Shown here: positions 13,496 to 44,260 of the stretch, in pieces
Layout: the number at the start of each line of letters is the position of its first letter
Numbering within the stretch: position 1 is the stretch's first letter
From: Verrucomicrobiota bacterium
GTDB lineage: Bacteria; Verrucomicrobiota; Verrucomicrobiia; Limisphaerales; JAIPKD01
Length of the DNA stretch: 64,000 nucleotides
Assembly (NCBI GenBank): GCA_021733835.1
Contig: JAIPKD010000006.1
Span: 211 to 64,210, forward strand
Reading direction: 5' to 3'
Position numbers and translations under genes: made by a program
The notes under the pieces: model-generated
Database searches by the model: none
What the model was told of the DNA's origin: nothing
Seen by the model: only the letters and a program-made list of their open reading frames with translations

Positions 13496-13559
13496 TCAAA
13501 ACCGGGACTTACGCTTTTTGTTGGGCTTTTTTTGCTATAAATATTTCATCCCTAACGGG

Positions 13560-13723
13560 ATTCTGGAAGGCGAAGGCGCTTGGCAATCGGATGAAGGCGT
13601 AGCATTCAAAGCTGCTGTGGCTGATCCTTCGGACACAGCCGCGCTCCGGCGGATTGAACGCGACTGTGCGTATCAAGGACATTTTATTCTGATAATTCCC
13701 GCTATTTATTAGCTTTTTAAGCA
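13560..13723. repeat. Copy D of the repeat family (central plus 3' modules only)
   Basis: 13582-13723 aligns with 49364-49506 (ggcaatcggatgaaggcgtagcattc..gctgatccttcggacacagccgcgctccggcggattgaacgcgactgtgcgtatcaaggac..ctatttattagctttttaagca). Confidence 0.8.
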
Positions 13724-13731
13724 ATTTACCC

Positions 13732-14166: not shown

Positions 14167-14251
14167 ATTCTAGTTAGCGAACCATTCGATTACTAGGAGA
14201 TATTTCCTACTATGTTGATATTAGTCGACAACCTGGGAACACTTTTCTAGT

Positions 14252-14520
14252 GATAAATTGCGATAATCCGTAAAATATCGGGCGTGATCAATCTTCGGAG
14301 CGCGACTGTGCTGAAAGCCGGTCGCGGATGTCTGAAGAAGACGTTGCCCCCGGTAATCGAATAAAGCCATGGCATTCGAGGCCGCTGCGGCTGATCTTTC
14401 AGACACAGAAGCGCTCCGCACCCCCCCTGTACGCGTTCGCGTTTTTCGTATAGCATCATCGACTGCGAATAACCAGAATCAGAATCGGGAATGCGAACGC
14501 GTACGTGTACGCGAACAGAG
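14252..14520. repeat. Copy B of the repeat family (5' plus central modules) with an appended long-loop hairpin
   Basis: 14252-14422 is near-identical to copy A. It is followed by a perfect 12-bp inverted repeat, gtacgcgttcgc (14430-14441) / gcgaacgcgtac (14494-14505). Confidence 0.85.
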
Positions 14521-14537
14521 CCGGAAGCCGGTTGTTT

Positions 14538-15239
14538 TTACTTTTTGCAGCGGAAACTGAGTATGTCGTAGTCGAGCACCGTATAATCCTTGGTTTCCAA
14601 GCGCATTTTCCCGGCGCGTTTGGCGCCTGTTTCTCCGCCGTATTGGATTAAGTCTTCGAAGCTGATCACCTCGGCGCGGATAAAGCCTTTTTGGAGATCG
14701 GTATGGATTTCAGAGGCGGCGTCTTTTGCCGTGGTACCATTTGGGATTAGCCAAGCCCTATTTTCCTTTCCGCCGACGGTGGCGAAGGAGATGTAGTCCG
14801 AGAACTTGACTGCGTCGGAGACGAGTGCCGGCCAGTTTTCTGCGTCAATGGACGGCTCCGAGACAACCGGCTTCAGAGTGATCCATTTTCTGGAACCGAG
14901 CAATTTCTTCTCGGCGGGTGTCAGCTCGAGTGTGGATATAAACCGTTCTTGCTCGAGGGCGTCTTGGAGTTTTACAAGGAGCTGTTTTTCGTCATCCTCC
15001 GGACTCCTGGCGAGTCTGGTTTCTATAAACTCCAGGTCTTCAAGGATGAGGTCACTAATGTATTCCTTTTTGGTAATAATCGCGTCGGCCTCGTTCAGGT
15101 CGTCGGCATCGGTTACCTCGATCGTCGCATAAGCTTTTTTCTTGGCTTCGACCAGTTCGTGAATTTGATCGAGCCGCGTGTCGCGGACATTGTGATTGCC
15201 GTTTTGGATATCCGTTAAATTATAAGCGCAGATTTTCAT
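14538..15239 (-). CDS. YchF-like protein lacking the P-loop GTPase/ATPase motifs (helical insert plus TGS/DUF933 C-terminal domain only)
   Basis: The C-terminus [72 protein letters not shown] matches the YchF C-terminal domain. There is no GxxxxGK(S/T) motif anywhere. The protein is 233 aa versus about 360 for YchF. Confidence 0.7.
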
Positions 15240-15408
15240 TTGTCGGTTTCGAGGATTGAATGCCCGAAAGCAAGGCGAAGTTATGTAAAGAAAAAGAGCG
15301 GTGTTGTCAAATTATTTATATCGGCCTCTTATCTCGGATAAAGGGAAGGCAACGGCATATTGGGCGTATTATATTGAAATTTCGGTATTTGCGAATATTG
15401 TACACACG

Positions 15409-15774
15409 ATGAGTAAGGTATTAATAGCGGAGGATGACCCGCTAATGATGCAGCTTGTGTCTTTCAAGTTAAAGCAGAATGGTGTGAACGTCATTACCGC
15501 CAGAGACGGGGAGTCCGCGTTGGCCCTGGCGCAAAATGAGAAACCCGATCTGATAGTGCTTGATTGCATGATGCCGGTCATGGATGGATTCGAGGTGCTT
15601 CGGCGGCTCAAGGAATCGGATGAGCTGAGGCGTATTCCGGTAGTAATGCTGACGGCGCGCAACAAGGATGTGGATGTAGTTACAGGGCTCGAGCTGGGTG
15701 CGTCAGACTACATACCGAAGCCATTCAGTCCAAATGAGTTTATTGCACGGGTAAAACGGCTTCTTTCAAATTAA
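15409..15774 (+). CDS. Stand-alone response-regulator receiver domain (CheY-like)
   Basis: MSKVLIAEDDPLMMQL..DLIVLDCMMPVMDGFEVLRRLK..PVVMLTA..GASDYIPKPFSPNEF is a canonical REC domain. The start is chosen at the internal ATG at 15409. Confidence 0.85.
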   Translation: MSKVLIAEDDPLMMQLVSFKLKQNGVNVITARDGESALALAQNEKPDLIVLDCMMPVMDGFEVLRRLKESDELRRIPVVMLTARNKDVDVVTGLELGASDYIPKPFSPNEFIARVKRLLSN

Positions 15775-15787
15775 TAGTAACATTATA

Positions 15788-20734: not shown

Positions 20735-22912
20735 TTGGGAATGAAGACTTTTCTTTTTATTTGTACGGGTAATGTGTGCAGGAGTCCGATGGCGGAGGCG
20801 CTTTTCCGGCGTGCGATTGAAGGCAGGGACGGAATACGGGTTGCTTCGGCGGGCATGGGCGCGGTTTGCGGTATGCCGCCCAGTGAGCATGCCGTCGTTG
20901 CCATGCGTGAACTGGGGCTTGATATAAGGGGGCTTAGCAGCCGGCCGCTTACACATGACCTGGCAATGGATGCGGACTACATCATTGGAATGACGCGGGC
21001 GCATGTGGATGCGGTGGCGTCGATGTATCCGCAGGTGGCGGAGAAGACCTTTTTGCTCCGGGAGTTCGATAGTTCTTTGAAGCCGCATGAACAGGATATA
21101 CAGGACCCGATCGGCGGGGATTATAACGTTTATGTGAACTGTCGTGATCAGATCAGACGAGGCATTGAGATAATGTTAAAATACTTTGATGAGAACGGGA
21201 TGATGGATGTGAGTGATAATGAATCCAAGGAACCTACCTCCATGGTGATCGGAGCCGACCACCGAGGGTACGAGTTAAAGGAAGAGATCAAGAAGCACAG
21301 CGATGAACTCGGTTTGGAATTGACCGATGCCGGCGCTTTTACTGAAGGCAGCAGTGATTATCCGGATACCGCATGGGCGACATGCCGACAGGTGCTCGAT
21401 AAAAAGGCCGATTTCGGTGTGCTGATTTGTTTCACGGGTTTGGGAATGAGTATCGCCGCCAATAAAATCCCCGGCATCCGCGCCGCGCTTGTCTATGATG
21501 AGGAAATGGCGGCGTTGGCCAGAGAGCATAACAATGCGAACATTTTGTGCCTAAGCGCTAAAAGCGTGGATTCAGAAAAAGCGTTGGCCATCATCAATGC
21601 GTATATCGGCGCAGGTTTCGAAGGCGGTAGGCACCAGCGACGTTTAAGCAAGATGTGCGAACTTTCACGCCCCGCGCGCCTGCGCCTGTGGGAGGCTGAT
21701 CAAGATGTGGCCGCCGCCATAGAGTCCGAACGCCGGCGCCAACAGGAAAATATCGAACTCGTGGCCAGCGAAAACTTTACAAGCCCCGCCGTAATGGAAG
21801 CCCAGGGCTCGGTGTTGACCAATAAGTACGCCGAGGGCTATCCGGGTAAACGCTGGTACGGAGGATGCGAGCACATTGACGTAGTTGAGCAATTGGCCAT
21901 TGACAGGGCCAAACAGCTCTTCGGCGCCGAGCATGCAAACGTGCAGCCGCACAGCGGGAGTACGGCGAATATGATCGTCTATTTTGCCGTGCTTAAGCCG
22001 GGCGACACGATTCTGACGATGGACCTTAGCCACGGCGGACACTTGACTCATGGAAACAAGGCGAATTTCTCGGGTAAATTCTTTAACGTAATTCATTATG
22101 GCGTCCGGAAAGAAGACGAGCTTATCGATTATGATCAGCTTGCGCAGACCGCACGTGAGCATAAGCCCAAGATGATCACCGTCGGCGCCAGCGCGTATCC
22201 GCGTGTTATCGATTTTGCTCGGATGTCCGAGATCGCCCGTGAAATCGACGCCTATATGATGGCGGATATCGCGCATATCGCAGGACTCATTGCAGCCGGC
22301 GAGCATCCAAGCCCGGTGCCGCACGCGGATTTTGTCACAACCACAACCCACAAGACGCTGCGTGGCCCGCGCGGCGGACTGGTTTTGTGCCCTGAAAAGT
22401 ATGCGAAAAAAATTGATTCGCAGACATTTCCCGGAATTCAAGGCGGCCCGCTGGAACACGTTATCGCAGGAAAAGCGGTCTGCCTCCAGGAGGCTCTAAA
22501 GCCCGAATTCAAGTCGTATCAGAAGCAAATCCTGAAAAACGCCAAGGCACTGGCGGAGGGATTGACCAAGAACGGTTTCCGTCTGGTCAGCGGCGGAACG
22601 GACAATCACCTGCTACTTGTCGATGTCGGTATGCGCGGCATGACCGGTAAGGAATGTCAAATCGCCTTGGATGAAGCGGGGATTACATTGAATAAGAATG
22701 CGATCCCGTTTGAAACGCGCTCGCCTTTCCAGGCAAGCGGGATAAGGATGGGGACACCCGCAGTCACTACCCGCGGAATGAAGGAACTGGAAATGCTTGC
22801 AATTGCCGATATGATAAGCGAAGTTCTTATGGAAGTCAAAGATGTTGACAAAGCGCGTGTTGTGCGCGAGCGTGTTAAAGAACTAACGGGTAAATTCCCC
22901 TTACCATACTAA
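20735..22912 (+). CDS. glyA: Triple-fusion protein: LMW protein-tyrosine/arginine phosphatase + ribose-5-phosphate isomerase B + serine hydroxymethyltransferase
   Basis: A single uninterrupted 725-aa frame. aa 1-155 carry [12 protein letters not shown] (the CX5R(S/T) P-loop) and the DP loop DIQDPIGG. aa ~170-315 are RpiB-like ([38 protein letters not shown]). aa ~315-725 are SHMT ([51 protein letters not shown]). Confidence 0.85.
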
Positions 22913-29469: not shown

Positions 29470-30756
29470 ATGAAGTCAGTAGAGATGCCAAAGGAACTAT
29501 TCGAGTTGAACAGAGATCGGTTGAAGCGCCTGATGTTGAAGGACTCGGTGGCCGTCGTAAATTCAAACGATGTATATCCGACGAATGCCGATGGAGTGAT
29601 GGCGTTTCATCAGAACGCGGATATGTATTATTTAACCGGGATCAATCAGGAAGAGAGCATTCTTCTGCTTGCGCCGGATGCGTATGACGAAGGCAAGCGT
29701 GAAATATTGTTTTTGCGGAAGCCAAGCGAGCATTTATCGACATGGGAGGGTGATAAGCTGAGTAAGGACGAGGCTAAGCGGATTTCTGGGGTAGAAAACG
29801 TTGAGTGGTTGTCCGAGTTCGACACGGTTTTTCACCAGTTGATGTGCGAGGCCGAGAACGTGTATTTGAACAGCAACGAGCATCAGCGCGCGGCGTCGGA
29901 GGTCATCACACGCGATATAGTGTTTGTGAGGGAGTGCATGCGGAAATACCCGTTGCATTGTTATCGGAGGCTGGCGCGGTTGATGCACGAGCTGAGGGCT
30001 GTCAAGTCCGATCATGAAATAAAGTTGATTAGAAAGGCGTGTGAAATAACGGCGCGGGGGTTCCGGCGTGTGCTCGAGTTCGTCAAGCCCGGCATCAACG
30101 AGGCGGAGGTCGAGGCCGAGTACGCGCATGAATTCATCAGGGATCATGCAAACTTCGCGTACTTGCCGATAATAGCCGCAGGCAAGAATAATTGCGTCTT
30201 GCATTATAACAGTAACGAACGTACATGCGAAGACGGTGATCTCCTTCTTATGGACGTAGGCGCCGCTTATGGTTATTACAATTCGGACATGACACGAACC
30301 ATCCCGGTGAACGGCAGGTTCACGCGCAGACAGAAGGAATTGTATTGCGCCGTGTTGGACGTGCTCAAGGAGATGACGGGCCGGATGACGCCAGGCAAGA
30401 CGATCCGTGACCTGCGTGAGGAAACCGACGAAGTGATAGCCGAGAAATGCGTCGAGCTGGGCTTGCTCAAGCGCACACAGGTCAGGCGGCTTAAATCGAA
30501 CAAGGCGCCGTTGCGGAAATACTTCATGCATGGAGTATCGCATCCGATTGGACTGGACGTTCATGACGCGATGTATAACCACCAGAAGATCGAACCCGGT
30601 TGGTTATTGACTTGCGAGCCCGGTATTTACATCAGGGACGAAGGCGTGGGCGTGCGCCTGGAGAATACCGTTCTTATTACCGAGGAGGGGACGGTGAACC
30701 TGATGTCGGATATCCCGATCGAGCCGGAGGAGATAGAAGATATCATGAATCGATGA
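29470..30756 (+). CDS. Xaa-Pro aminopeptidase (M24B family)
   Basis: Aminopeptidase P N-terminal domain plus pita-bread fold motifs (LLMDVGAAYGYYNSDMTRT, HGVSHPIGLDVHD, LTCEPGIY, VRLENTVLIT). Confidence 0.85.
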   Translation: MKSVEMPKELFELNRDRLKRLMLKDSVAVVNSNDVYPTNADGVMAFHQNADMYYLTGINQEESILLLAPDAYDEGKREILFLRKPSEHLSTWEGDKLSKDEAKRISGVENVEWLSEFDTVFHQLMCEAENVYLNSNEHQRAASEVITRDIVFVRECMRKYPLHCYRRLARLMHELRAVKSDHEIKLIRKACEITARGFRRVLEFVKPGINEAEVEAEYAHEFIRDHANFAYLPIIAAGKNNCVLHYNSNERTCEDGDLLLMDVGAAYGYYNSDMTRTIPVNGRFTRRQKELYCAVLDVLKEMTGRMTPGKTIRDLREETDEVIAEKCVELGLLKRTQVRRLKSNKAPLRKYFMHGVSHPIGLDVHDAMYNHQKIEPGWLLTCEPGIYIRDEGVGVRLENTVLITEEGTVNLMSDIPIEPEEIEDIMNR

Positions 30757-30759
30757 GCG

Positions 30760-31668
30760 ATGGAGACCGGTCTGGTCAGCAATATTCAGCGGTATTCGGT
30801 CAAGGACGGACCGGGTATCAGGACGACCGTGTTTTTCAAGGGGTGTCCGCTGAATTGTTCTTGGTGTCATAATCCTGAGAACATAGTCGGGCGTCCAGAA
30901 TTGGTTGTAATTGAATCGAGGTGTATACGATGCGGTACTTGCGCGGCAGTCTGCCCCGTCGTCGAAGGATTGGATGCATCAAAGGAAATCATTCGCGGGC
31001 GGATGGTCGGCAGGTGTAGGCTTTGCGGTGCGTGCGTCGAGGCTTGTCCCACCAATGCCCGGCGTATGATCGGGAGCAGCCTGAGTACGGACGCGGTGAT
31101 GCGCGAGATATCGGCGGATCGTGTCTTTTACGAGGAGTCGGGGGGTGGGGTGACTTTTTCCGGCGGCGAGCCGTTGATGCAGTTCGATTTCCTTATGGAG
31201 CTTCTCGAAAAGTGCCGTAAGGACGGCGTGCATACGTCAGTTGACACTTGCGGTTATGCGCCGCCGGCGCGGATTCTCGCCGTAGCGGAGGCGGCGGATA
31301 TGGTGTTATACGATCTGAAGTTTCTCGATGACTCGTTGCACGTGAAGTATTGTGGTGTGTCGAATCATGATATCCTCGATAACCTGTGCACACTGGCTGG
31401 TCGCGTGGATGTCCGGCTAAGGATTCCCGTGATTCCCGGCGTGAACGATACGCCGGATGAAGTGGAGGCGATGGCTCGTTTTATCTCTGCGCTTCGAGGC
31501 GTGCCGGCGATAGACCTGCTTCCTTACCATCGGCTGGGGACGCATAAATTAGAGCGACTCGGCAGGAAGAACGGGATGAAAGGGATCGACTCGGCGGGGG
31601 ATGAGATTGCTGAGGCGGTTGCATTGCGATTTGGTGAGCACGGTTTGAAGGCGGGGATTATATCTTAG
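30760..31668 (+). CDS. Glycyl-radical-enzyme activating protein (radical SAM with two extra ferredoxin-type clusters)
   Basis: DGPGIRTTVFFKGCPLNCSWCHNPE (CX3CX2C), followed by CIRCGTCAAVCP and CRLCGACVEACP, and GGVTFSGGEPL. Confidence 0.85.
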   Translation: METGLVSNIQRYSVKDGPGIRTTVFFKGCPLNCSWCHNPENIVGRPELVVIESRCIRCGTCAAVCPVVEGLDASKEIIRGRMVGRCRLCGACVEACPTNARRMIGSSLSTDAVMREISADRVFYEESGGGVTFSGGEPLMQFDFLMELLEKCRKDGVHTSVDTCGYAPPARILAVAEAADMVLYDLKFLDDSLHVKYCGVSNHDILDNLCTLAGRVDVRLRIPVIPGVNDTPDEVEAMARFISALRGVPAIDLLPYHRLGTHKLERLGRKNGMKGIDSAGDEIAEAVALRFGEHGLKAGIIS

Positions 31669-32856: not shown

Positions 32857-33633
32857 GTGATGTCTTCAGCAGCGGAAATACCAGTCGTAATCCTGGCCGG
32901 TGGGCTTGGAACCAGACTGCAAACCGTTGTGCCGGATCGGCCGAAGGTAATGGCCGACGTGGGCGGACGCCCGTTTTTGGCGTGGATATTGGACTTTGTG
33001 AAGAGCCGCGGGTTCGGACGGATCATTATTTGTACCGGATACAAGGCGCGGGATATCGAAGCCTACTTCGGCGCCGGGTACGATGGTTTGTCAATACGAT
33101 ACTCTAATGAAGCGACGCCGCTGGGAACGGGCGGAGCGCTTGGGAATGCCCTGGATATGATCGATGCGGAATACGCGGTGGTTATGAACGGCGATACGCT
33201 GTGCGAGGTCGAGCTTGAAAAATTGTGTGAGCGCCACGAGGCGTGTGAGGCGGATGCGTCGCTGACCGCCGTTTGGACGGACGATTGCACGAGGTTCGGC
33301 AGGCTTGTTGTCGACGCAAACTCGATGGTGATGGATATGGAAGAGAAGTCTGGTGTGCGGTGCGCGGGCTTAATAAACGGTGGTGTTTACGTTGTTAATA
33401 CCCGGCTGATACGTGGGATACCGGCTTCTTCGTGTATTTCATTGGAGACCGGTTTGTTGCCGGAATGGATAAAAGGTGGTCGTTGCTTTGCCGTGGAGAT
33501 GGAAGGTTTGTTTATAGACATTGGAACTCCCGAGTCGTATGCGCGCGCGGATGAAATAATGCGGGGAACATCGTTTGTTCGAACACCAATCCGCCGGGCA
33601 TCGGCCGGACATCAAATCCCGACTATACAATGA
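32857..33633 (+). CDS. Sugar-1-phosphate nucleotidylyltransferase (HddC-like guanylyltransferase type)
   Basis: VVILAGGLGTRL..RPKVMADVGGRPFL..PLGTGGAL..INGGVYVV is the NTP_transferase fold signature. The ~250-aa size is typical of HddC-type enzymes. Confidence 0.8.
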   Translation: MMSSAAEIPVVILAGGLGTRLQTVVPDRPKVMADVGGRPFLAWILDFVKSRGFGRIIICTGYKARDIEAYFGAGYDGLSIRYSNEATPLGTGGALGNALDMIDAEYAVVMNGDTLCEVELEKLCERHEACEADASLTAVWTDDCTRFGRLVVDANSMVMDMEEKSGVRCAGLINGGVYVVNTRLIRGIPASSCISLETGLLPEWIKGGRCFAVEMEGLFIDIGTPESYARADEIMRGTSFVRTPIRRASAGHQIPTIQ

Positions 33634-34706
33634 TTATAACCCGAACACCATACAGGATATCATTCTTCGGCGGCGGCACGGATTATCCCGCTTGGTATAT
33701 GGAGCATGGCGGCGCGGTGTTGGCTACGACCATAGACAAGTATTGTTACTTAACTTGCCGATTCCTCCCGCCGTTCTTCGAACACAAGATACGTATCGTC
33801 TATTCGGTTATCGAGAACTGCAACAGCGTGGACGAAATACGGCATCCATCGGTACGCGAGATATTGAAGTACTTGAATGTACAGCGGGGTGTGGAGATTC
33901 ACCATGACGGCGATTTGCCGGCACGCAGTGGTATGGGCTCGAGCTCCGCGTTCACCGTCGGGCTCATGAATGCAGTGCACGCGTTGCACGGCAGGTTCGC
34001 GGGGAAGAAGAAACTGGCCTTGGACAGTATCGAACTGGAACAGAATATCCTGAAGGAAACAGTCGGTTCCCAGGATCAGGTCATGGCGGCGCATGGCGGA
34101 TTCAACCACGTTGTATTCCACACGTCATCGGAGATATCGGTACGCCCTGTAATATTGCCGAAGAACCGTATGAGCGCCTTATCCGAACGGCTCATGTTGT
34201 TTTACACGGGAATAAAGCGTACGGCGTCACACGTGGCCTGCAGTTACGTCGATGGATTCGAAACAAAACGGCGCCAGCTCAGGATGCTCAAGAACATGGT
34301 GGACGAGGCGCTGGAGGTGTTGTCCGGCGACAAAGACCTAAACTACTTCGGTGAGTTGCTACATGAGGCATGGATATTCAAGAAATCCCTTGGTGCGCGC
34401 GTTTCCAATGGCGAGGTCGATGGGATATACGACGCGGCGCGCCGGGCGGGCGCTCTTGGTGGAAAGATCACCGGCGCGGGCGGCGGCGGATTCTTACTGC
34501 TTTATGTGCCGATTGAATGCCAGAAGGATGTCAAGCGCGCGCTTTCCGGCCTTTTGCACGTGCCGTTCGAATTCGAGTCCTCGGGCAGCCAGGTAATATA
34601 TTTCGATGAAGAAGAAGATTACTCCGAGGCCGAAAAGGAAAACGAGCACCGTATATCCATGATTTGCAGGGAGATGGATGAGATGATCCCAACAGAATCT
34701 ACATAG
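33630..34706 (+). CDS. GHMP-family sugar kinase (HddA-like)
   Basis: MIITRTPYRISFFGGGTDYP N-terminus, GHMP motif LPARSGMGSSSAF, and C-terminal KITGAGGGGFLL. 4-nt overlap with the upstream gene. Confidence 0.8.
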   Translation: MIITRTPYRISFFGGGTDYPAWYMEHGGAVLATTIDKYCYLTCRFLPPFFEHKIRIVYSVIENCNSVDEIRHPSVREILKYLNVQRGVEIHHDGDLPARSGMGSSSAFTVGLMNAVHALHGRFAGKKKLALDSIELEQNILKETVGSQDQVMAAHGGFNHVVFHTSSEISVRPVILPKNRMSALSERLMLFYTGIKRTASHVACSYVDGFETKRRQLRMLKNMVDEALEVLSGDKDLNYFGELLHEAWIFKKSLGARVSNGEVDGIYDAARRAGALGGKITGAGGGGFLLLYVPIECQKDVKRALSGLLHVPFEFESSGSQVIYFDEEEDYSEAEKENEHRISMICREMDEMIPTEST

Positions 34707-34715
34707 GAAAAGATT

Positions 34716-35357
34716 ATGCAGGATACAGTTTTGGAAAATACAAAACGTTTGCCGCAGTTGACACCCGAGTATTTACGCGAGTTCGAAGAGGAGATAGCGG
34801 CGGAGTTCAACGTCGGCAATATTCGCGCGCCGGTGCACTTGTACAGCGGTAACGAGGAGATGATGATCGATCTGTTCCGTGGGATTCATAGGGACGACTG
34901 GGTGTTATGCTCGTGGCGCAGTCATTATCAGTGCTTACTCAAGGGTGTGCCCAGGGACGAGCTAAAAAGAGAAATACTCGACGGCCGCTCCATCTCCCTC
35001 TGCTTCCCCGAGTACAGGATATTCTCATCCGCCATAGTAACCGGTATCCTGCCGATCGGCGTCGGCATAGCAATGGCGATCAAGCGGAGCGGTGAGAAAA
35101 ACAGGGTGTATTGCTTTATAGGTGAAATGACATCGGAGACGGGCGTGGCGCACGAGTGTATTAAGTACAGTGAAAACCACAATCTGCCTATACATTTTAT
35201 TATCGAAGACAACGGTAAATCGGTTTGTACAGACACACGGCAGGCATGGAATTGTGAAAAGCTTACATACGAAGGCATACGCAATCACAGAATTACTTAT
35301 TATAAATATAACTCCAAATGGCCGCATGCAGGTGCCGGAGTGCGTGTACAATTTTGA
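34716..35357 (+). CDS. Short TPP-dependent E1 alpha-like subunit
   Basis: VHLYSGNEE..SWRSHYQCLLKG..IVTGILPIGVGIAMAIK..CFIGEMTSETGVAHECIKYSENHNLPIHFIIEDNG follows the E1-alpha TPP-binding pattern, but the protein is only 213 aa. Confidence 0.7.
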   Translation: MQDTVLENTKRLPQLTPEYLREFEEEIAAEFNVGNIRAPVHLYSGNEEMMIDLFRGIHRDDWVLCSWRSHYQCLLKGVPRDELKREILDGRSISLCFPEYRIFSSAIVTGILPIGVGIAMAIKRSGEKNRVYCFIGEMTSETGVAHECIKYSENHNLPIHFIIEDNGKSVCTDTRQAWNCEKLTYEGIRNHRITYYKYNSKWPHAGAGVRVQF

Positions 35358-35359
35358 AT

Positions 35360-35896
35360 ATGAAATATTTCGACGAATTAAAATGGGCAATGGAATTCTT
35401 GGCCCAGGATACCAGGACGGTGTTTCTCGGACAGGCGGTGGCGTGCGCGGGTACGGCTATGTCCAATACGCTTAGGGACGTCGACCCGGACAGGAGGATC
35501 GAGCTGCCTGTCAATGAAGAGATGCAAATGGGAATGACCAACGGCATGGCGTTGAGCGGTCTTATCCCTGTAAGCGTATTTCCGCGTTGGAATTTTCTGC
35601 TGCTTGCGATGAACCAGCTTGTAAACCATCTAGACAAAATACCCGTCATCTCGAGGGGAAGGTGTGCTGCCAGGGCGATTATTCGCACCGGAATTGGATC
35701 GGAGCGTCCGCTCAACCCACAGTGTCAGCACGTTGGGGACTTCACGGAGGTCGTCGACGCGATGTGCCGGAACATCGAGGTGATTCGATTGGAGGAACCT
35801 GAGGATGTGTTTCCCGGTTATAAAAAAGCGCTAGAACGTGACGACGGTAAAAGCACCATATTGGTGGAATATGGAGATTACTATAATGAAAAGTGA
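35360..35896 (+). CDS. Short TPP-dependent E1 beta-like (pyrimidine-binding domain) subunit
   Basis: VFLGQAV..GTAMSNTL..RIELPVNEEMQMGMTNGMALSGLIPVSVFPRWNFLLLAMNQLVNH resembles the E1-beta/transketolase Pyr domain. The start sits 3 nt after the upstream stop. Length is 178 aa. Confidence 0.65.
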   Translation: MKYFDELKWAMEFLAQDTRTVFLGQAVACAGTAMSNTLRDVDPDRRIELPVNEEMQMGMTNGMALSGLIPVSVFPRWNFLLLAMNQLVNHLDKIPVISRGRCAARAIIRTGIGSERPLNPQCQHVGDFTEVVDAMCRNIEVIRLEEPEDVFPGYKKALERDDGKSTILVEYGDYYNEK

Positions 35897-37103
35897 TACA
35901 GTGGCATTGAACGAAACGGCGGTGGCGGAAGATAGCCTCGGCCCGTGGCCGTTGATGCGTAACAATATCTCGCGAGCCGACCTGGACGCAGTAATCGAGT
36001 TTCTTGGCAAAGATGATCCGATCCTGACGCAATCGGAAAACGTGCGAGCATTTGAGAAAGAATGGTCCGAATGGTTGGGAGTCGATTACAGTGTATTCGT
36101 TAACTCGGGCGCGTCGGCGAACTTATTAACCATGTCCGCGCTTAAGTATATATACGGGCCCGGAGAGGTTATCGTTCCAAGTTTGACTTGGGTTTCGGAT
36201 ATCGCGTCCGTCATACAAAGCGGACTCAAGCCGGTGTTTGTGGACATCGATCCTTTCACGCTCGGCATGGATACCGAGCAAGTATTGGATAAGTTGAATT
36301 CGCGCACGCGCGCGGTGTTCTTGACGCATACCCTTGGATATAACGCGTTGAATGATAAGTTGTTAGACGAGCTTAAGGCCGGCGGAGTTCCGCTGATCGA
36401 GGATGTTTGCGAGTCACATGGGGCGACGTATAACAACAAAAAACTCGGCGCGTTCGGCTGGATATCGAATTTTTCTTTCTACTATGCCCACCACTTAAGC
36501 ACTATCGAAGGTGGTATGGTATGCACATCCGACCCGGAGGTATATTATATTGTTCGTATGCTCCGGTCTCACGGCATGGTGCGTGAATCGGGTTCTCTTG
36601 AGACCAAGACCCGGTATCGCGTTGAGAATCCCGATCTTAATCCCGATTTCATATTCGCATACCCCGCATATAATATGCGAAATACCGAAATCAATGCAGT
36701 CATAGGCCGGAACCAACTTAAGCGCTTGAACGAGAATAACAGGAAACGTACACGTAATCTCCATATTTTTCTCGAACACTTGGATGCAGAACGGTTTCAG
36801 ACGTGTTTCAACACCGCCGGGAGTAGTAATTACGCGTTTACATTGATACTGAATGCGCCGGATTTAAAACTGCGGAATAGGATTGAAAAAGAATTGCGCG
36901 AGAACAAAGTCGAGTTCAGACGCGGTACCGCCGGCGGAGGAAACCAGCTGCGACAGCCGTATCTGCGAAGGATATTCGGGGATATTTATAAAAACTATCC
37001 CGCAGTCGACCATGTACATTTCTTCGGATGGTATATAGGTAACTATCCGGACCTGGAAGAAGAGAGAATAATTCACCTTTGTAGACTATTAAACGGAGTC
37101 TAA
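35886..37103 (+). CDS. DegT/DnrJ/EryC1-family PLP/PMP enzyme of the ColD/E1 sugar 3-dehydratase type (His replaces the Schiff-base Lys)
   Basis: VNSGASANLL. The active-site block NFSFYYAHHLSTIEGGMV (36468-36521) resembles ColD FSSFYSHHIATMEGG and E1 SFYPAHHITMGEGG rather than the aminotransferase SFxxxK motif. Confidence 0.7.
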   Translation: MKSDTVALNETAVAEDSLGPWPLMRNNISRADLDAVIEFLGKDDPILTQSENVRAFEKEWSEWLGVDYSVFVNSGASANLLTMSALKYIYGPGEVIVPSLTWVSDIASVIQSGLKPVFVDIDPFTLGMDTEQVLDKLNSRTRAVFLTHTLGYNALNDKLLDELKAGGVPLIEDVCESHGATYNNKKLGAFGWISNFSFYYAHHLSTIEGGMVCTSDPEVYYIVRMLRSHGMVRESGSLETKTRYRVENPDLNPDFIFAYPAYNMRNTEINAVIGRNQLKRLNENNRKRTRNLHIFLEHLDAERFQTCFNTAGSSNYAFTLILNAPDLKLRNRIEKELRENKVEFRRGTAGGGNQLRQPYLRRIFGDIYKNYPAVDHVHFFGWYIGNYPDLEEERIIHLCRLLNGV

Positions 37104-37106
37104 GCG

Positions 37107-38660
37107 ATGTTATATGAAAGACGACCGGATGTATTATTCGTGCACGCGGATTCGTCCGTCTTATCGTATCAGGGGCTGAGCGCCAGGTTTGCGGCGATCG
37201 AGCCGCCGACGTGGTGTCTGCTCCTGGCGCAGAGTTGCAGGAGTGTTGGTTTTGGGGCGATGATCCTGGATTGCGCCGCCGAGGGCTTGGATATCGATGA
37301 AGCGGTAGAGCGTATTTGTGAGATTCGTCCGCGACTAGTCTGTTTTGTGGTATATGGACAGAATCCGAACTCGGGAACGACTAATATGTCGGGTGCAACC
37401 CTCCTATGTAGGCGGCTAAAGGAGGTATCGAACGGAGCCAAGACATGCTTTGTCGGCTCGCATACCAATGCGCTGCCGAATGAGGTGCTAGGTTTGGATT
37501 ATGTGGATTTCGTGCTGTTGAACGAAGGCGTTTATGCGTTGCGAAATTTACTGAAAACCGATTTGGAGAATTACCTAGATAAGGTGCGCGGCATCGGTTT
37601 TAAAAAATACGGGAGAAACATCTTGAATGAGCCCGAGTATGTTGTGCCACAGGAACGAATGGACATTGATTTGCCGGGCTACGCGTGGGACTTGTTGCCG
37701 TATAAGAGTAAACCACTTGATCTATATCGCTCACACTTCTGGCATGCAGACTTCGATCATACAAAACGTACGCCGTTCGCCGCAATATATACATCATTAG
37801 GCTGCAGATTCAGGTGCGAATTTTGCATGATAAATATATTGAACCGTATGGATAATCGTCTGCATATAACCGCCGCCGATTCTCCCCAAATGCGGTTTTG
37901 GTCGCCGGACTTCATAATACGCGAGTTCGAAAAACTTGCAGGCATGGGGGTGGAAACCATTCGTATCTCCGACGAAATGTTCTTCTTGGATAAACGCTAT
38001 TACAAGCCGTTGGTTGAAATGCTGGAAGAACGCGATCTCGGATTGCGCCTTTGGGCGTATGCTCGGGTTGATACCGTGCGCAGTGAGTACTTGAAACACT
38101 TCAAGAACGCAGGAATCAATTGGCTGGCCATCGGCGTCGAGTCCGCGAATAAGCAAGTCAGACACGAAGTATCAAAGGGTTCATTCAAGGATACGAATAT
38201 TTACGATGTAATCAATATGATCCGCGATGCGGATATAAATGTGATATCGAATTTTATCTTCGGCCTTCCCGAAGACACGATTCAGACGATGCGTGAAACG
38301 CTGGACCTCGCACTTGAGCTTAACACGGAAATGGCAAACATGTATCCGTGTATCGCCCTGCCGGGCAGTAGACTGTATCATACCGCAAAGAAGAGGCATT
38401 GGGCACTCCCTGAATCTTATGAAGGCTACGGATTCCTGTCATACGAATGTCAACCGTTACCGACAAAGTATGTATCCGCAAAAGAAGTGCTGAGTATTCG
38501 TGATAAGGCATGGAATGAATATTTTAACAATCCGGCCTACCTCGAATTGGTCGAACGAAAGTTCGGCGTCAAGCAAAGACGAAATGTCGAAGAAATGAAG
38601 AAAATACGGCTCAGACGTAAAATTCTTGGAGATGTACCGCTTAAGTGCGAAGCCGAATAA
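37107..38660 (+). CDS. B12-binding-domain radical SAM enzyme (class B, probable methyltransferase)
   Basis: N-terminal Rossmann-like B12-binding region (LVCFVVYGQNPNSG) and radical SAM motif SLGCRFRCEFC (CX3CX2C). Confidence 0.8.
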   Translation: MLYERRPDVLFVHADSSVLSYQGLSARFAAIEPPTWCLLLAQSCRSVGFGAMILDCAAEGLDIDEAVERICEIRPRLVCFVVYGQNPNSGTTNMSGATLLCRRLKEVSNGAKTCFVGSHTNALPNEVLGLDYVDFVLLNEGVYALRNLLKTDLENYLDKVRGIGFKKYGRNILNEPEYVVPQERMDIDLPGYAWDLLPYKSKPLDLYRSHFWHADFDHTKRTPFAAIYTSLGCRFRCEFCMINILNRMDNRLHITAADSPQMRFWSPDFIIREFEKLAGMGVETIRISDEMFFLDKRYYKPLVEMLEERDLGLRLWAYARVDTVRSEYLKHFKNAGINWLAIGVESANKQVRHEVSKGSFKDTNIYDVINMIRDADINVISNFIFGLPEDTIQTMRETLDLALELNTEMANMYPCIALPGSRLYHTAKKRHWALPESYEGYGFLSYECQPLPTKYVSAKEVLSIRDKAWNEYFNNPAYLELVERKFGVKQRRNVEEMKKIRLRRKILGDVPLKCEAE

Positions 38661-38713: not shown

Positions 38714-41700
38714 ATGCAAAACAGCGTATATTCAAACCCGACCGACGCGAATGATGTAATTTACGAGTCCATCAATGATGCGTTTGAGTTCGGGGATTAT
38801 TCCTACGTAGCGCAGTCCGGGGAGAAATCGGATTGGCGATACTGGGTTGCTCTCGGACTTCTGGGGAAGACAGATGATGCAATCAATGGTTTGAATGAAT
38901 TCAGCAATCCCGAAGCGTGTTTCTACAAGGCCGTAAGCCTATGGATGGATGGGCGTGATAATGATGCCTCCTCACTGCTTGCAAAGATAGATACCGTTAA
39001 TGCTCGAAGGCTGCTCAAAATGATCTCACAGCCGAAAATCAATGTGCTTGCTCAAACGTTTTGGGACACGAGCTGCTTCAGCGATCCGAAATTCAATGTT
39101 AAAAAGATCGGCTTAAACGCGTATCCGTTTAAAGAAAGAAGCAGCCGTATTTGTAAGAGCGCTTTAAAGCAGATCGATAATCGCGAGCAATATGATTTTT
39201 TCTTTGCACACATGATAGAGTGGGAACACTTACCGCATGATCTGCATGAATTGCCTTGCCCTGTCTTCGGCGTGACGTCGGACTTTGATCTGCATATTCA
39301 AACAATCCATGATTGGCTTTTTGTATTCGACCACCTTATTACAGTTGGCTCAGAAGAAGCATGGAAAGTTAGACATATATCGCGGCGGCCGTCGTCGGTA
39401 TTCGTCAAAATGTTCCCTTTAAAAGATAAGATACCGAATGCATCCTTCTCAGATAAAATAACTAATCTTTATGTATCAGGAACATTGTTCAATCCGTATC
39501 ATCACGATAAAGCCCGTTTAAACAACCTGATATTCGAAAGTGAATTAAGTGATAATCTATTCGTTGATGGATTCGTAGGTCAGCAATTGTATTATGAACA
39601 ATTAAAGAAATCCAAGGTCTGTTACACGTACGTACGTCATGGTTCGTCCATGCCGTCGCGTGGAATCGATGCGCTTGCAATGGGCTGCGCAGTGGTCGTT
39701 CAGGAAAACAGTCCACTCTCCATCTTCGCCTCTGAAAAAGAGGGTCTGTTTACATATAACCATAAGACTGACGATTTGGTAAATGTATTGGCTCATGTGA
39801 TCGACAATTGGAAGAGTATCAAGGGCAATTTAAAAAAAGGTGCCGATATTGTTAGAAATGAATTTAATCATAAACGTTGCGTATCACAATTTTTAAGGTA
39901 CTTGACCTTTCTAGCGGCGACTCATAATTATAGTAGATCAAACAGGAAGAATGCAAGTGGTATATCGCAGAAACGAGCGCATGTGCGCAGAGGTAGAAAA
40001 CAGCCTTTGGGAGTTAATAAAGACTTGGCATTAGACAAATATTCAGAATTCAAAAGGCACGAGCCAAAAGATAGAACGCTTAAGGCATATATTGATACGG
40101 CACGGGAGCTGGAATATCTAGTTGCAGGCGATTATATCGAAGAAATAGCAAGACGCGGCGGAAACACTGTGCGGATTGAACAAGCACAGGAGATAGTGCA
40201 AATAAACGAATTAGTGTCGAATATTTATAATGAAGGCACCATAATATACACAAAATCCTTGGCATTACGTTTCAATCAAATAAGACACTACATGTATTTG
40301 GGAAAACCAGATAATACGCCGTGGATTATCGAAGAGGCGAAGGATATTGTATCAAAACCACTTGATCACTGGACGCTGGATCACCTTGACGATATATTTG
40401 CATGGGATTACTTCAGCGATAGTTTTAATTATAGAAAATATTTCGATATTATTACGTACGGACTGATAAAAAATGATATTGATTACACACAGCTAAAAAG
40501 ACTGATCCTGGCATCAATAAACTATTATTTAGGACAGTACACCGGCGGATTGGAATACTTGAGAAAAGCGGTTGAATTAGACTCAGAATTCGCATTTTAT
40601 AAATATACATATGTACAAGCTCTATTGATATCCGGTACGGAAGATAATAACAAGGAGGCGATAATAATGCTAAGAGAACTTGCGAACACATCTATGATGT
40701 TCGCCAAAGCGATAGAAATGTTGATTTCACCCGAATTACAGCGCCATATAACACCTGGGGAATACTCAAAATATGAGTTTAAGCTCCGTAATTACATGAA
40801 TCAAATGTATAACGCAAATGATAATTTAAAGGAATATTTGACGACTACATTAGTTGAACCTAGAAGTGATACAGATACTGATACATTGCAAACACAAATT
40901 AAAGAACACGAAAAAGTAGGCGTTGAAGAAAATAGACTAACAATGAATAGCCGAATCCCAATAAGTAAAAGGGAAAGATACGCAGATAAGACTATATTAT
41001 TGATTAATATGGAATGCGCTAATTGGGAAAACGCGAGATCATGGTCATACTGTGGTGGGTATGCCTTTGAGGAAGGATTGGAGTGGTGCGGCGCAAACGT
41101 ATATAAATTACCGGCAACAGCCGGCGGAAGCTCAAATCATCCGGCTTCCTGGCTAAGTCGCATGAAAGAAATCGGCTTATCGAGGAGATACGACCAGATA
41201 TGGATATGGATGACGCATGTGGATTACACGCAAGAGTTCCTTGAAAAAATAAAGGAATTATCGCCGGTTCGTGTGGGGATTATAATGGAATCAATGGAGC
41301 ACACAAACGATGAATATAATAAATATGTCAAGTGTCGAGGTAGGCGGGAGAAAATATTAAGTCAGCTCGAATATATGACGCATGCGCTGGCTTTCGACGA
41401 CTACGATGTCAAAACAATAGAAAAGGAAGCGGGAATACATGCAATGTGGTGTCCACCCGTGGTGCCGTGGCGGAGTGTATGCAACGAGATCATAATGCCT
41501 GATCCAGCGCCCGCAGCCTTTTATGGCACTGTATATTCCAGTGAGAGAATGAAGTTTTTAAGTCATGATGGTCTAAAAGGATTAATAACTAAGCCGGAGT
41601 TGCTTGAAGAAAGAACGACACTGCCGAAGGCGTTTGATGATCACCAGCGGAAGTACATCGAGATATTGCTTGGAAACGATATGGTGGATAACGAGGTATT

Positions 41701-44260
41701 TTATAATTATTACTTCGGATTGGAATTAATACGACGAAGGTTATTCGATTTATGGATGAGGTCAATCGCGCGCTCATACGCTGTAGTAAATCTACCATCG
41801 ATTTTTAAATGCTATGCGGGACGAGTAGTTGAGACAATGGCAGCCGGGCGTCCGGCTATATCGTGGGCGCCGCCCAGGCAAAGGACAAGGTCATTATTCG
41901 AACCGGATAACGAAATATTGCTGTTCGATCGAAATTCTCCAGAGGAACTGGCGGAAAAGATCAGAATGCTCCAAAGAGATAAAGACTTAGCTTTTAATAT
42001 AGCATGTAATGCACGAGAGAAAGTATTGAATTATCATACGGAGCGAGTGCGAATGCAGCAGGTGTTGGATTGGATAGACGAATTCGAAGAACCGGATTAC
42101 GGCGAAGGTGATTACGGAGAATGCAAGGATTTCTGCGAAGACGATGAATTAATGGATAGCAATCGGGGTATCCTCGACGCTGGGATACCGGGAAACGGAG
42201 ATAACGGCGGTGGAATACCGAATAATATTCGTAATGCGCAAGAGAAGATCAAACTGGAGAGTAAGCCTATAGAATTACCTGAGGCGGGGAAGAAGGGACG
42301 TCTTCGCGACGCATACGGACTCTTGTCTGAGGGGCGATTACAAATGTCGTGGCAGGCGACCATTGAGGCAATGCGCGAGCGCCCGTTTCATCCGGAGGCG
42401 ATCACGGTATTATCCAGGATCGCTCATGCAGCTGGGGATTTGGAGAAGGCCAAGACGCTGGTTGACGCGGCTATACGAATGGCGCCCGGATTCAAATTGG
42501 CACAGGATTTAAAGAAGACGATTAAGAAGGCGCGATCAAAAGGGAGTGAGAATACTAAAACGCCATGGGCGATGATTCCGGATGAGCCTGTGTTTAAGAA
42601 TATCAAGAACACGGCGAAGTCTTCGTACGTGGGCGTGTTAACCGCATGTATCATAGTGCGAAACGAGGAGAAGTTTATTGAGCGTTGCATCAGTTCCGTG
42701 AAGCCCATCGCCGCGCAGATAGTGGTGGTGGACACCGGTTCTATGGATAGGACGGTTGAAATAGCGCGCCGATTAGGCGCAGAGGTACATAGTTATGAAT
42801 GGAACGATGACTTCAGCGCCGCCAGAAACTTCAGTCTTGAAAAGGCGCGTGGTGATTGGGTGTTAATAATCGACGCAGATGAAGAGCTGCCCGCCTCAGA
42901 GCACGCGAACATCATGAATAATATGCGGGAATTATCGGTGCTAGGATTTCGTCTGCCGATTGTCAACGCAGGACGTAATCAGCATGGAGCGGCTTACGTG
43001 CCGCGGTTGTTCCGGAACGCGCCGGGCCTCTTTTTTGTCGGCCGGATTCACGAACAGGTTTTCAAGAGTGTCACTGTTCGCGCAAGGGAGTGGGGATTGA
43101 CCGTAGGAATAAGTTCCGCCCAGCTGGTGCACTATGGATATGACGCGGACTTGATGAAGGATAGGAAGAAACAGGAAAGGAACATGAACCTTATCAAGCG
43201 CGCTGTTGAAGAAGACCCGAATGATCCGAACATAGCGATGAACATGGGCTTAGAGCTGGGGCGTTCGGGGCGGCTTGAAGAGTGTATCGGATGGTATTAC
43301 AAGGCGATGCAGTTGATGACATTGCAACCGGACACGCGGGCGCCTGAGCTTCGGGAAGTGATGTTGACTCAGTTTTGCGGATATCTCGCCAATCTCAGAC
43401 GGTACAGCGAGATTCCCGAGGTTCTCGGCTCGGAATTGGCGAGGACGCAGGAGTTTACTGCATCGCTGCATTACATTTTGGGTCTGGCATATTTCAACCT
43501 CGGCAAATTCAGCGCCGCGTTGGAAGAGGTGGAGACCTGCATGGCCAAGAAAAATAGGCAAACCATGAGTCCGCAAATAAACGAGGTGCGTGGGATCGAA
43601 CCGTTGTTGATCCGCGCTAATTGCCTTGCCTTGCTTAAGCGTTATGAAGAGGCTGGGAAGGCGTTTCGTGTTGCGTTGGAACATGACGAGCGGTCGCGGA
43701 GTGCACGGTTCGATTACGCCAGGTTCCTCGCGTCACGCCGTCAGACCGGTGAGGCATTGAGGCTATTAATCGAGCTGGTTTCTGAAGGCGCCGGTGAATT
43801 GCCGGTTTGGGATATAGGCGCGCGCATAGCGTTAACGGATAGGCGGTATACGGCGTATGCGTTGGATTGGACGGCGGAGGCGGTGAATGTTTTTCCTCAT
43901 GAACGGATCGTGATCCGTCAACGCGCCGAGGCGCTACTGCTCAATGACATGCCGGAACAGGCATTTACATGGTACCGTAAGTTGAAATACCCGCTCGATT
44001 CGACATCCGAGGCAGGGTTGTTGGTTTGTGGTTTCGTCGTAGACGATGAAGAGGTATGCAGCGATGTGAAGACCGATAGAGTTTTGAACGCTGAATTCGC
44101 GGCTTGGTACAAGCGCCTTGTCCAATTCGGGGCGCGTACGACAATCAAAAAATTGAATTCACGCATGCACGCCGTGGCCGATATATTGCCGTTGACCGGG
44201 CCCTTACTTAGAAACGCCGCCGCGCAGGCGCAGGCTTCGACGGTGGTTACCGATTCCTGA
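38714..44260 (+). CDS. 1848-aa multi-glycosyltransferase: two CgeB/GT1-like modules + GT2 (GT-A) module, interleaved with TPR/helical repeats
   Basis: aa ~150-400 form a GT-B-like module (SRGIDALAMGCAVVV). aa ~760-1130 are CgeB-like (GRVVETMAAGRPAIS..LFEPDNEILLFDRNSPEELAEKIRML..AREKVLNYHT). aa ~1305-1520 are GT2 (CIIVRNEE..VVVDTGSMDRT..NDDFSAARN..LIIDADEEL). TPR-like helices lie between and after these modules. Confidence 0.75.
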   Translation: MQNSVYSNPTDANDVIYESINDAFEFGDYSYVAQSGEKSDWRYWVALGLLGKTDDAINGLNEFSNPEACFYKAVSLWMDGRDNDASSLLAKIDTVNARRLLKMISQPKINVLAQTFWDTSCFSDPKFNVKKIGLNAYPFKERSSRICKSALKQIDNREQYDFFFAHMIEWEHLPHDLHELPCPVFGVTSDFDLHIQTIHDWLFVFDHLITVGSEEAWKVRHISRRPSSVFVKMFPLKDKIPNASFSDKITNLYVSGTLFNPYHHDKARLNNLIFESELSDNLFVDGFVGQQLYYEQLKKSKVCYTYVRHGSSMPSRGIDALAMGCAVVVQENSPLSIFASEKEGLFTYNHKTDDLVNVLAHVIDNWKSIKGNLKKGADIVRNEFNHKRCVSQFLRYLTFLAATHNYSRSNRKNASGISQKRAHVRRGRKQPLGVNKDLALDKYSEFKRHEPKDRTLKAYIDTARELEYLVAGDYIEEIARRGGNTVRIEQAQEIVQINELVSNIYNEGTIIYTKSLALRFNQIRHYMYLGKPDNTPWIIEEAKDIVSKPLDHWTLDHLDDIFAWDYFSDSFNYRKYFDIITYGLIKNDIDYTQLKRLILASINYYLGQYTGGLEYLRKAVELDSEFAFYKYTYVQALLISGTEDNNKEAIIMLRELANTSMMFAKAIEMLISPELQRHITPGEYSKYEFKLRNYMNQMYNANDNLKEYLTTTLVEPRSDTDTDTLQTQIKEHEKVGVEENRLTMNSRIPISKRERYADKTILLINMECANWENARSWSYCGGYAFEEGLEWCGANVYKLPATAGGSSNHPASWLSRMKEIGLSRRYDQIWIWMTHVDYTQEFLEKIKELSPVRVGIIMESMEHTNDEYNKYVKCRGRREKILSQLEYMTHALAFDDYDVKTIEKEAGIHAMWCPPVVPWRSVCNEIIMPDPAPAAFYGTVYSSERMKFLSHDGLKGLITKPELLEERTTLPKAFDDHQRKYIEILLGNDMVDNEVFYNYYFGLELIRRRLFDLWMRSIARSYAVVNLPSIFKCYAGRVVETMAAGRPAISWAPPRQRTRSLFEPDNEILLFDRNSPEELAEKIRMLQRDKDLAFNIACNAREKVLNYHTERVRMQQVLDWIDEFEEPDYGEGDYGECKDFCEDDELMDSNRGILDAGIPGNGDNGGGIPNNIRNAQEKIKLESKPIELPEAGKKGRLRDAYGLLSEGRLQMSWQATIEAMRERPFHPEAITVLSRIAHAAGDLEKAKTLVDAAIRMAPGFKLAQDLKKTIKKARSKGSENTKTPWAMIPDEPVFKNIKNTAKSSYVGVLTACIIVRNEEKFIERCISSVKPIAAQIVVVDTGSMDRTVEIARRLGAEVHSYEWNDDFSAARNFSLEKARGDWVLIIDADEELPASEHANIMNNMRELSVLGFRLPIVNAGRNQHGAAYVPRLFRNAPGLFFVGRIHEQVFKSVTVRAREWGLTVGISSAQLVHYGYDADLMKDRKKQERNMNLIKRAVEEDPNDPNIAMNMGLELGRSGRLEECIGWYYKAMQLMTLQPDTRAPELREVMLTQFCGYLANLRRYSEIPEVLGSELARTQEFTASLHYILGLAYFNLGKFSAALEEVETCMAKKNRQTMSPQINEVRGIEPLLIRANCLALLKRYEEAGKAFRVALEHDERSRSARFDYARFLASRRQTGEALRLLIELVSEGAGELPVWDIGARIALTDRRYTAYALDWTAEAVNVFPHERIVIRQRAEALLLNDMPEQAFTWYRKLKYPLDSTSEAGLLVCGFVVDDEEVCSDVKTDRVLNAEFAAWYKRLVQFGARTTIKKLNSRMHAVADILPLTGPLLRNAAAQAQASTVVTDS

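Follow-up and report, generated by a model that had tools for sequence, protein, structure and literature searches.

What does a single bacterial polypeptide carrying three glycosyltransferase (GT) modules glycosylate, and how might the modules work together? The question is raised by a gene in contig JAIPKD010000006.1 of a Verrucomicrobiota bacterium of the order Limisphaerales (assembly GCA_021733835.1), of which we analysed positions 211 to 64,210, a stretch of 64,000 nucleotides that we call the window. The gene encodes 1848 amino acids (aa), and we refer to its product as the giant GT. Our analysis suggests that it is a fused, multi-step cytoplasmic protein O-glycosyltransferase that most probably acts on flagellin prior to its export; we put the probability of this reading at about 0.6. 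The reading is drawn from the location of orthologues in flagellar gene clusters, where a conserved transferase lies beside a variable island of sugar genes, and from a GmaR-like domain, tetratricopeptide repeat (TPR) arrays and a predicted cytoplasmic location. A first-pass annotation of the window, made from the letters alone, had guessed at a protein glycosyltransferase. This guess is supported by a GT2 module resembling GmaR, SunS and ThuS and by the orthologues in flagellar clusters; flagellin as the acceptor is a new proposal. The gene and its parts are as follows.

38714-44260 (+): giant three-module glycosyltransferase gene; ATG start, 1848 codons, no internal stop
38714-39010 (+): N-terminal segment of about 100 aa before module 1; weak ARM/TPR-like Pfam match at aa 59-92
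39011-39958 (+): GT-B module 1, predicted GT4-like fold, aa 100-415 (Pfam, AlphaFold2, Foldseek, invariant columns)
40091-40873 (+): central helical, TPR-containing region, aa ~460-720; TPR_CcmH_CycH at aa 597-671, TPR_8 at aa 599-625
40976-42097 (+): GT-B module 2, PF13524 (CgeB/YkvP-like), predicted GT4-like fold, aa 755-1128 (Pfam, AlphaFold2, Foldseek, homologues)
42104-42298 (+): acidic Gly-rich linker, aa 1131-1195; junction of blocks A and B, site of a TPR insert in most homologues and change point of base composition
42617-43216 (+): GT2 (GT-A) module, GmaR/SunS-like, aa ~1302-1501 (Pfam, PDB profile matches, motifs)
43193-44260 (+): C-terminal TPR array and helical tail, aa ~1494-1848; TPR_2, TPR_19, TPR_14 and TPR_17 at aa 1494-1700

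The single uninterrupted frame of the first-pass annotation was recovered exactly, and its roughly 1850 stop-free sense codons rule out a chance origin. The Logan assembly of SRR12088347, probably built from the same reads with a different assembler, encodes the same 1848-aa protein, identical throughout and flanked by the same genes. Among 5.8 billion proteins searched, 17 clusters hold homologues, and those with a named source are from Verrucomicrobia. In 13 of these clusters, which stem from unrelated samples, block A (aa 20-1131) and block B (aa 1195-1837) are both collinear with the query at 34-44% identity, and the order of the modules is unchanged. Scanning GTDB species genomes added 13 further loci, all except one in Verrucomicrobiota (Pedosphaera, Limisphaerales). 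Given the second assembly, the collinear homologues and the GTDB loci, the three-transferase fusion is an established, conserved gene family and not a chimera. A sharp step in the GC content of third codon positions (GC3) within the gene, at codon 1189, could be taken to favour an assembly chimera or an error-caused read-through of separate genes, and the possibility of a misassembled join had been raised at the outset. Against the identical product in the Logan assembly and the same module order in 13 clusters, this explanation is hardly credible and we reject it. The typical relative is longer, at about 2400 aa, with some 600 residues of extra TPR inserted exactly at the junction of blocks A and B; the insert is absent from the window protein and from the homologues P0002 and P0014. 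In one locus (L016, 9923-17302) the orthologue is broken into three overlapping open reading frames (ORFs; 9923-11224, 11125-11673 and 11621-17302), owing either to frameshifts, making it a pseudogene, or to sequencing errors.

The GT2 module matches Pfam PF00535 (Glycos_transf_2) at aa 1311-1406 with 72.8 bits against a cutoff of 23.3 (E value 4e-20), and the translation contains the motifs DTGSMDRT (aa 1340-1347) and DADEEL (aa 1387-1392), as had been claimed for it. D1340 and the DxD residues, D1387-A-D1389, are nearly invariant in the family. The closest solved relative is the GT domain of GmaR (22ao, E 1.6e-31, about 200 residues aligned), followed by SunS (E 2.6e-19) and the ThuS-like 7msk (E 1.8e-17). 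The top NCBIfam match is SunS (TIGR04195), at 86.2 bits, which is far under the 350-bit equivalog cutoff. The TPR scaffolding described in the first-pass annotation was found by Pfam in three places, in the central region (aa 597-671), N-terminal of the GT2 module (aa 1241-1275) and beyond it (aa 1494-1700). The last array belongs to a region conserved right to the C-terminus in homologues and is a putative acceptor-docking domain. The central TPR region follows a basic linker (aa ~410-460), and in P0016-P0018 it and module 1 are conserved as one unit. No 19-residue segment exceeds a Kyte-Doolittle mean of 1.32 over the whole protein, and it therefore has no transmembrane segment; a signal peptide was not found either, in line with the first-pass annotation. 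By these sequence features the giant GT is predicted to be a soluble cytoplasmic protein.

Both GT-B modules reported in the first-pass annotation are present, and module 1 begins near aa 100 rather than at aa 150. An exhaustive search of its relatives shows that the module typically starts at residue ~85-100 and that nearly all family members have the N-terminal segment. Module 2 is the easier to recognise: its PF13524 (Glyco_trans_1_2) match scores 70.3 bits (cutoff 25) and falls into two stretches, of which the best is aa 1016-1119 (E 2.2e-19). Module 1 has a weak Pfam match to Glycos_transf_1 (aa 251-367, 34 bits) and a weak PDB profile match (E 0.095). We built AlphaFold2 predictions for each module on our own alignments of its family. 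Both give complete two-lobe folds, with a predicted local distance difference test (pLDDT) score of 84.2 and a predicted template modelling (pTM) score of 0.83 for module 1 (aa 100-415), and 91.1 and 0.90 for module 2 (aa 755-1128). In Foldseek searches of the PDB, module 1 matched BshA, a mannosyltransferase and SdgB (E ~1e-8) and module 2 matched SdgB, MshA, PimA and TarM. All matches of both modules were GT4-type GT-B enzymes, including trehalose synthase and sucrose-phosphate synthase, with E values of 1e-8 to 5e-10 and alignments spanning both Rossmann-like lobes. Profile searches align the C-lobe donor-binding motif of both modules to GT4 chains; the invariant motif is SMPSRG-x-[E/D]-x-LA-x-GC in module 1 and NLPS-x2-K-x-Y-x-GRVVE-x-MA-x-GRP in module 2. 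Across the family the motif residues of all three transferase modules are invariant or nearly so, and both GT-B modules are densely set with invariant polar residues. It had been suggested that the GT-B modules might prove to lack the conserved catalytic architecture; the predicted folds and their GT4 matches argue that they do not. A recent tandem duplication as the origin of modules 1 and 2 was rejected, as hhalign aligns only about 90 C-lobe columns, with a probability of 22%.

The full-length orthologues are found in flagellar loci in three distinct arrangements. In the first, seen in at least six Pedosphaerales/Limisphaerales contigs, variable sugar genes are followed by the giant GT, a hypothetical gene, DUF4836, a TPR/GT9 gene and then flhF-flhA-flhB-fliR. 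The sugar block is hypervariable, with NeuB and a CMP-transferase (CTP_transf_3) in L001 and sulfotransferases, methyltransferases and a Glyphos_transf protein in L003. In the second (L002) the order is cheD-fliW-csrA-flagellin-E1_dh-Transket_pyr-giant GT. In the third (L026), which encodes the closest relative of block A, the giant GT and a 180-aa gene precede flhF-flhA-flhB-fliR-fliQ-fliP-fliO-fliN-fliM and flgE/G. The contig L007 combines the two contexts, with the sugar cassette of the window (63-68% identity) upstream of its giant GT and flhFAB downstream. Flagellar linkage was found in every full-length orthologue with enough flanking sequence, the window itself excepted.

Single modules have related contexts. 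As a separate protein of about 370 aa, module 2 has over 100 homologues. One of them (P0086), from the isolate Sphaerotilus montanus, is encoded between flagellin/flhDC and motAB/cheYZ with the same cassette alongside, and the kinase, split E1, DegT and B12-radical S-adenosylmethionine (SAM) enzymes of that cassette are 57-66% identical to those of the window, its nucleotidyltransferase 38%. In Alteromonas hispanica another (P0064) is accompanied by the cassette enzyme set in an island that ends in flagellin and fleQ. We considered this island as a split version of the whole giant GT and rejected the idea: only module 2 has an orthologue there, and the 436-aa PF13524 protein and the 507-aa GT2 of the island match neither the module 1 nor the block B profile. 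An exhaustive HMMER search places module 1 at the centre of its own family, with 467 representative clusters and a usual plan of ~90 N-terminal residues, the GT-B module and a helical extension.

Two further TPR-associated proteins were seen in homologous loci. One is a second TPR-glycosyltransferase of the flagellar region, a conserved protein of ~477 aa with TPR and Glyco_transf_9 (heptosyltransferase family) whose gene adjoins flhF (L001 20577-22007, L003 20641-22074, and syntenic in L007, L008, L009, L016 and L018). The other, in L024 (4542-10004), is an 1820-aa fusion of Glyphos_transf, sulfotransferase and TPR, encoded directly upstream of P0016 (module 1-TPR-GT2). This second kind of giant fusion shows that TPR-scaffold fusions of sugar-modifying enzymes are recurrent in this lineage.

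The window cassette consists of six genes directly upstream of the giant GT.

32857-33633 (+): sugar-1-phosphate nucleotidyltransferase (Pfam NTP_transferase, E 3.7e-24)
33630-34706 (+): GHMP-family sugar kinase (Pfam GHMP_kinases_N/C)
34716-35357 (+): thiamine pyrophosphate (TPP)-dependent enzyme, short E1 alpha-like subunit (Pfam E1_dh)
35318-35896 (+): TPP-dependent enzyme, short E1 beta-like subunit, Transket_pyr only (Pfam); gene-caller start ~35360 (L006)
35838-37103 (+): DegT/RfbH/PseC-type pyridoxal phosphate-dependent sugar aminotransferase or dehydrase (Pfam DegT_DnrJ_EryC1, E 1.9e-64); gene-caller start ~35886
37107-38660 (+): B12-binding radical SAM enzyme, probable sugar C-methyltransferase (Pfam B12-binding and Radical_SAM)

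The best NCBIfam matches of the cassette enzymes lie below the family cutoffs, with HddC/mannose-1-phosphate guanylyltransferase for the nucleotidyltransferase (161 bits, cutoff 300), HddA for the kinase (123 bits, cutoff 600) and RfbH for the DegT enzyme (196 bits, cutoff 423). Cassette loci were found in the window (32857-38660), in L021 (4359-12710), in the Spirulina locus L025 (2329-8143), in L007 (206-5287) and in L020. Among the window, the betaproteobacterium Sphaerotilus and the verrucomicrobial metagenome-assembled genome (MAG) L007, most of the six genes share 57-68% identity. In the cyanobacterial Spirulina MAG only the kinase and the DegT gene are in a comparable range (60-67%). 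By gene, identities to cassette copies elsewhere are 57-63% for the kinase (Sphaerotilus, Spirulina, L007), 63-73% for the E1 alpha-like subunit (L002, L007, L021), 66-68% for the E1 beta-like subunit and 62-66% for the B12-radical SAM enzyme (L007, L016, L018, L021). The nucleotidyltransferase is the least conserved (32-39%). The cassette identities are high across phyla and far higher than those of the associated transferases, which suggests that the cassette is a horizontally mobile, widely exchanged pathway for a sugar. Judged by enzyme family only, the short E1 alpha/beta pair together with the DegT and B12-radical SAM enzymes suggests that this sugar is a C-branched, C-methylated amino or deoxy sugar. 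We propose that the split TPP enzyme would add a branch of two carbons to a keto-sugar. Module 2 is co-inherited with the cassette, and so is module 1 in Spirulina, which suggests that these modules may transfer the cassette product. Nothing relevant was found in the literature on this cassette in flagellin glycosylation.

How might these parts work together? We infer the following route, and with it the acceptor used here, the sequence of the steps, the sugars donated and the activity of all three modules. The six upstream genes would make an unusual nucleotide-activated sugar, the kinase and the nucleotidyltransferase providing its activation and the DegT, split TPP and B12-radical SAM enzymes tailoring it through an amino or deoxy modification, a two-carbon branch and a C-methyl group. 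Docking of the acceptor protein would fall to the TPR arrays, and the GmaR-like GT2 module would place the first sugar on a serine or threonine. The GT4-like GT-B modules would then lengthen the chain, using the cassette product for at least one of the added sugars, so that a short, defined glycan would be completed by one polypeptide. By analogy with GmaR and SunS, the GT2 module is the likeliest to make the link to the protein, and the GT-B modules are the likeliest to elongate the glycan.

What is known of flagellin O-glycosylation comes mainly from single-module enzymes (Maf, FlmG, GmaR), and a question in the field is how acceptor and donor specificity are encoded; we found no paper on flagellin glycosylation in Verrucomicrobiota. 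GmaR is the flagellin O-GlcNAc transferase and MogR anti-repressor of Listeria monocytogenes, a cytoplasmic protein with the order GT, TPR and further helical domains, whose crystal structure covers residues 141-637 (PMC9638930). The window protein shares with it a GmaR-like GT2 catalytic domain followed by TPR (aa 1494-1700) and the DTGS, DADE and HEQ motifs. It differs in adding two GT-B modules, whereas GmaR, at 637 aa, has a single transferase domain. In FlmG of Caulobacter and Brevundimonas, a cytoplasmic protein of 596 aa encoded with flagellar or sugar-biosynthesis genes, the TPR binds flagellin and a single GT-B that follows it selects the donor and transfers pseudaminic or legionaminic acid (PMC7591256; bioRxiv 10.1101/2022.03.25.485807). 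Compared with FlmG by architecture, from its description, the giant GT likewise has TPR and GT-B on one protein without a transmembrane segment, but it has two GT-Bs flanking a TPR region plus the GT2, and the window has no nonulosonic-acid (NulO) genes, neither NeuB/PseI nor a CMP-NulO synthetase. As to Maf, MAF_flag10/DUF115 was not among the best 25 of 26 Pfam families matched (E <= 1).

SunS and ThuS also have a GT2 domain with a helical extension and glycosylate peptides directly, by S-glycosylation; the window protein falls far below the SunS cutoff, as given above, and no lantibiotic-type or glycocin precursor gene is nearby. Stand-alone PF13524 proteins of flagellar glycosylation islands, such as P0086 and P0064, are 32-34% identical to the giant GT over 97-98% of module 2 (E 1e-73 to 1e-87) and share the cassette of kinase, nucleotidyltransferase, E1, DegT and B12-radical SAM genes next to flagellin, flhDC or motAB. 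They differ in being single-module proteins of about 370 aa, or methyltransferase fusions, that lack TPR, and are themselves uncharacterised. Enzymes that unite several GT modules in one chain and produce a defined repeat are known from ABC-transporter-dependent O-antigen synthesis of the WbdA/WbbM type (PMC11231755). The design there is different: these enzymes act at the membrane on undecaprenyl-linked acceptors, their genes adjoin wzm/wzt and a priming transferase gene, and TPR arrays are absent. TPR-bearing cytoplasmic protein O-glycosyltransferases are already known, and it is the fusion of three transferases that is new. Should flagellin be its acceptor, the giant GT would offer a natural setting in which to study the coordination of sequential glycosylation on one scaffold, as well as a compact three-step part for glyco-engineering.

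Several observations weigh against the flagellin reading. The giant-GT family has no biochemically characterised member. The similarity to GmaR is confined to the catalytic domain: in a search of the PDB with aa 1195-1848 (E <= 0.01) the only GmaR chain recovered was the 204-residue GT-domain chain 22ao, and nothing matches the GmaR linker or anti-repressor domains. The 64-kb window, which covers 38 kb before the giant GT and 20 kb after it, contains no flagellar gene and none of the conserved Pedosphaerales neighbours (hyp357, DUF4836, TPR+GT9). Named relatives of module 1 are found in Cyanobacteria (Spirulina, Pseudanabaenaceae), Myxococcota and Desulfobacterales, and the Spirulina locus pairs a module-1 protein with the kinase, nucleotidyltransferase, DegT and B12-radical SAM genes of the cassette and a GT2 without flagellar genes. 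Cyanobacteria are not known to have flagella. The Spirulina pairing therefore suggests that the unit of cassette and transferase is portable and can serve other acceptors. The same chemistry could be directed at a pilin, an S-layer or other surface protein, a secreted adhesin, or a soluble or lipid-linked oligosaccharide, the flagellar linkage being specific to some lineages. A stand-alone module 1 beside an ABC2 membrane protein and a WsaF-like fragment (L022) also fits such a role. It is because of the window without flagellar genes and the cyanobacterial and other relatives of module 1 that we do not put the flagellin reading higher. We nevertheless regard another acceptor as possible but rather unlikely, since all adequately flanked full-length orthologues except that of the window are linked to flagellar genes, the GT2 module has a flagellin transferase as its nearest relative and the protein lacks a membrane anchor. 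Nor is there, among the ORFs of the window, any Wzx/Wzy, Wzm/Wzt or polyprenyl-phosphate priming transferase adjacent to the giant GT.

A further point against the flagellin reading as set out above, with three active transferases, concerns module 1, whose C-lobe acidic residue, a conserved Glu in the family, is replaced by Asp here (D319). Taken with its low scores against Pfam GT families and PDB profiles and with the absence of detectable homology to module 2 beyond ~90 C-lobe residues, this could mean that only one or two of the modules are catalytic and that one GT-B, with module 1 the most plausible choice, has degenerated into a scaffold or a sugar-nucleotide-binding domain. In that case the giant GT would carry out one or two transfer steps and not three. 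Many polar residues are invariant in the module 1 family (T188, S189, D190, D192, H194, H263, D265, K266, R308, H309 and R316), however, a complete two-lobe GT-B fold is confidently predicted, and the family is large in its own right. Together these point to purifying selection on an active site in module 1, and we consider its degeneration improbable.

The composition of the gene raises the question of how such fusions arise. GC3 is 0.42 over codons 1-1189 and 0.62 over codons 1190-1848, and the best single change point, codon 1189 (near 42278), falls inside the acidic Gly-rich linker between the blocks. The other genes of the window have GC3 values of 0.54-0.68, and five orthologous giant-GT genes have flat profiles. 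The step at the linker, as against the flat profiles of the orthologues, suggests that block A came from elsewhere and was fused there to a block B already resident, and may mark a recombinational exchange of blocks. The identity rankings of blocks A and B across homologues are broadly congruent, and no donor of block A was identified. We speculate that the protein may be a single-polypeptide assembly line in which three active transferases, each with its TPR array, build a defined hetero-oligosaccharide on cytoplasmic flagellin, and that the glycans diversify by block swaps at the flexible linkers, much as in nonribosomal peptide and polyketide synthases. The window gene, with a foreign-looking block A carrying both GT-Bs and a native-looking block B, would be an example caught in the act. 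As a whole this extended proposal is doubtful, somewhat more so than the idea of a different acceptor.

As the first-pass annotation stated, the sugar cluster lies upstream of the giant GT and a GH78 gene followed by a GH27+NPCBM gene lies downstream. A functional link of the giant GT to these hydrolases was rejected. Neither the GH78 rhamnosidase nor the GH27 galactosidase neighbours the homologue in any homologous locus, and GH27 has a signal-peptide-like N-terminus, in contrast to the cytoplasmic giant GT; most simply, the two are unrelated polysaccharide-degradation genes. Promoter and terminator scans gave nothing above shuffled expectation.

Elsewhere in the window there are two large proteins with a CotH kinase domain, at 318-5090 (-) and 15788-18565 (+); the former has 1590 aa with four lamin-tail domains and chitobiase/Fn3-associated domains. 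A spore-coat-like system of CotH kinases and the CgeB-like modules was considered and dropped, the two being more than 20 kb apart and unlinked in homologous loci. The ORF at 20735-22912 (+), 725 aa in one stop-free frame, contains a low-molecular-weight phosphotyrosine phosphatase (aa 6-144), RpiB (aa 171-307) and a serine hydroxymethyltransferase (aa 320-694), and if translated as one protein it is an unusual triple fusion. At 29470-31668 (+) an M24 Xaa-Pro aminopeptidase is followed by a glycyl-radical-enzyme activase, with trans-4-hydroxy-L-proline dehydratase activase as its best match (336 bits against a cutoff of 425) and no adjacent glycyl-radical enzyme gene.

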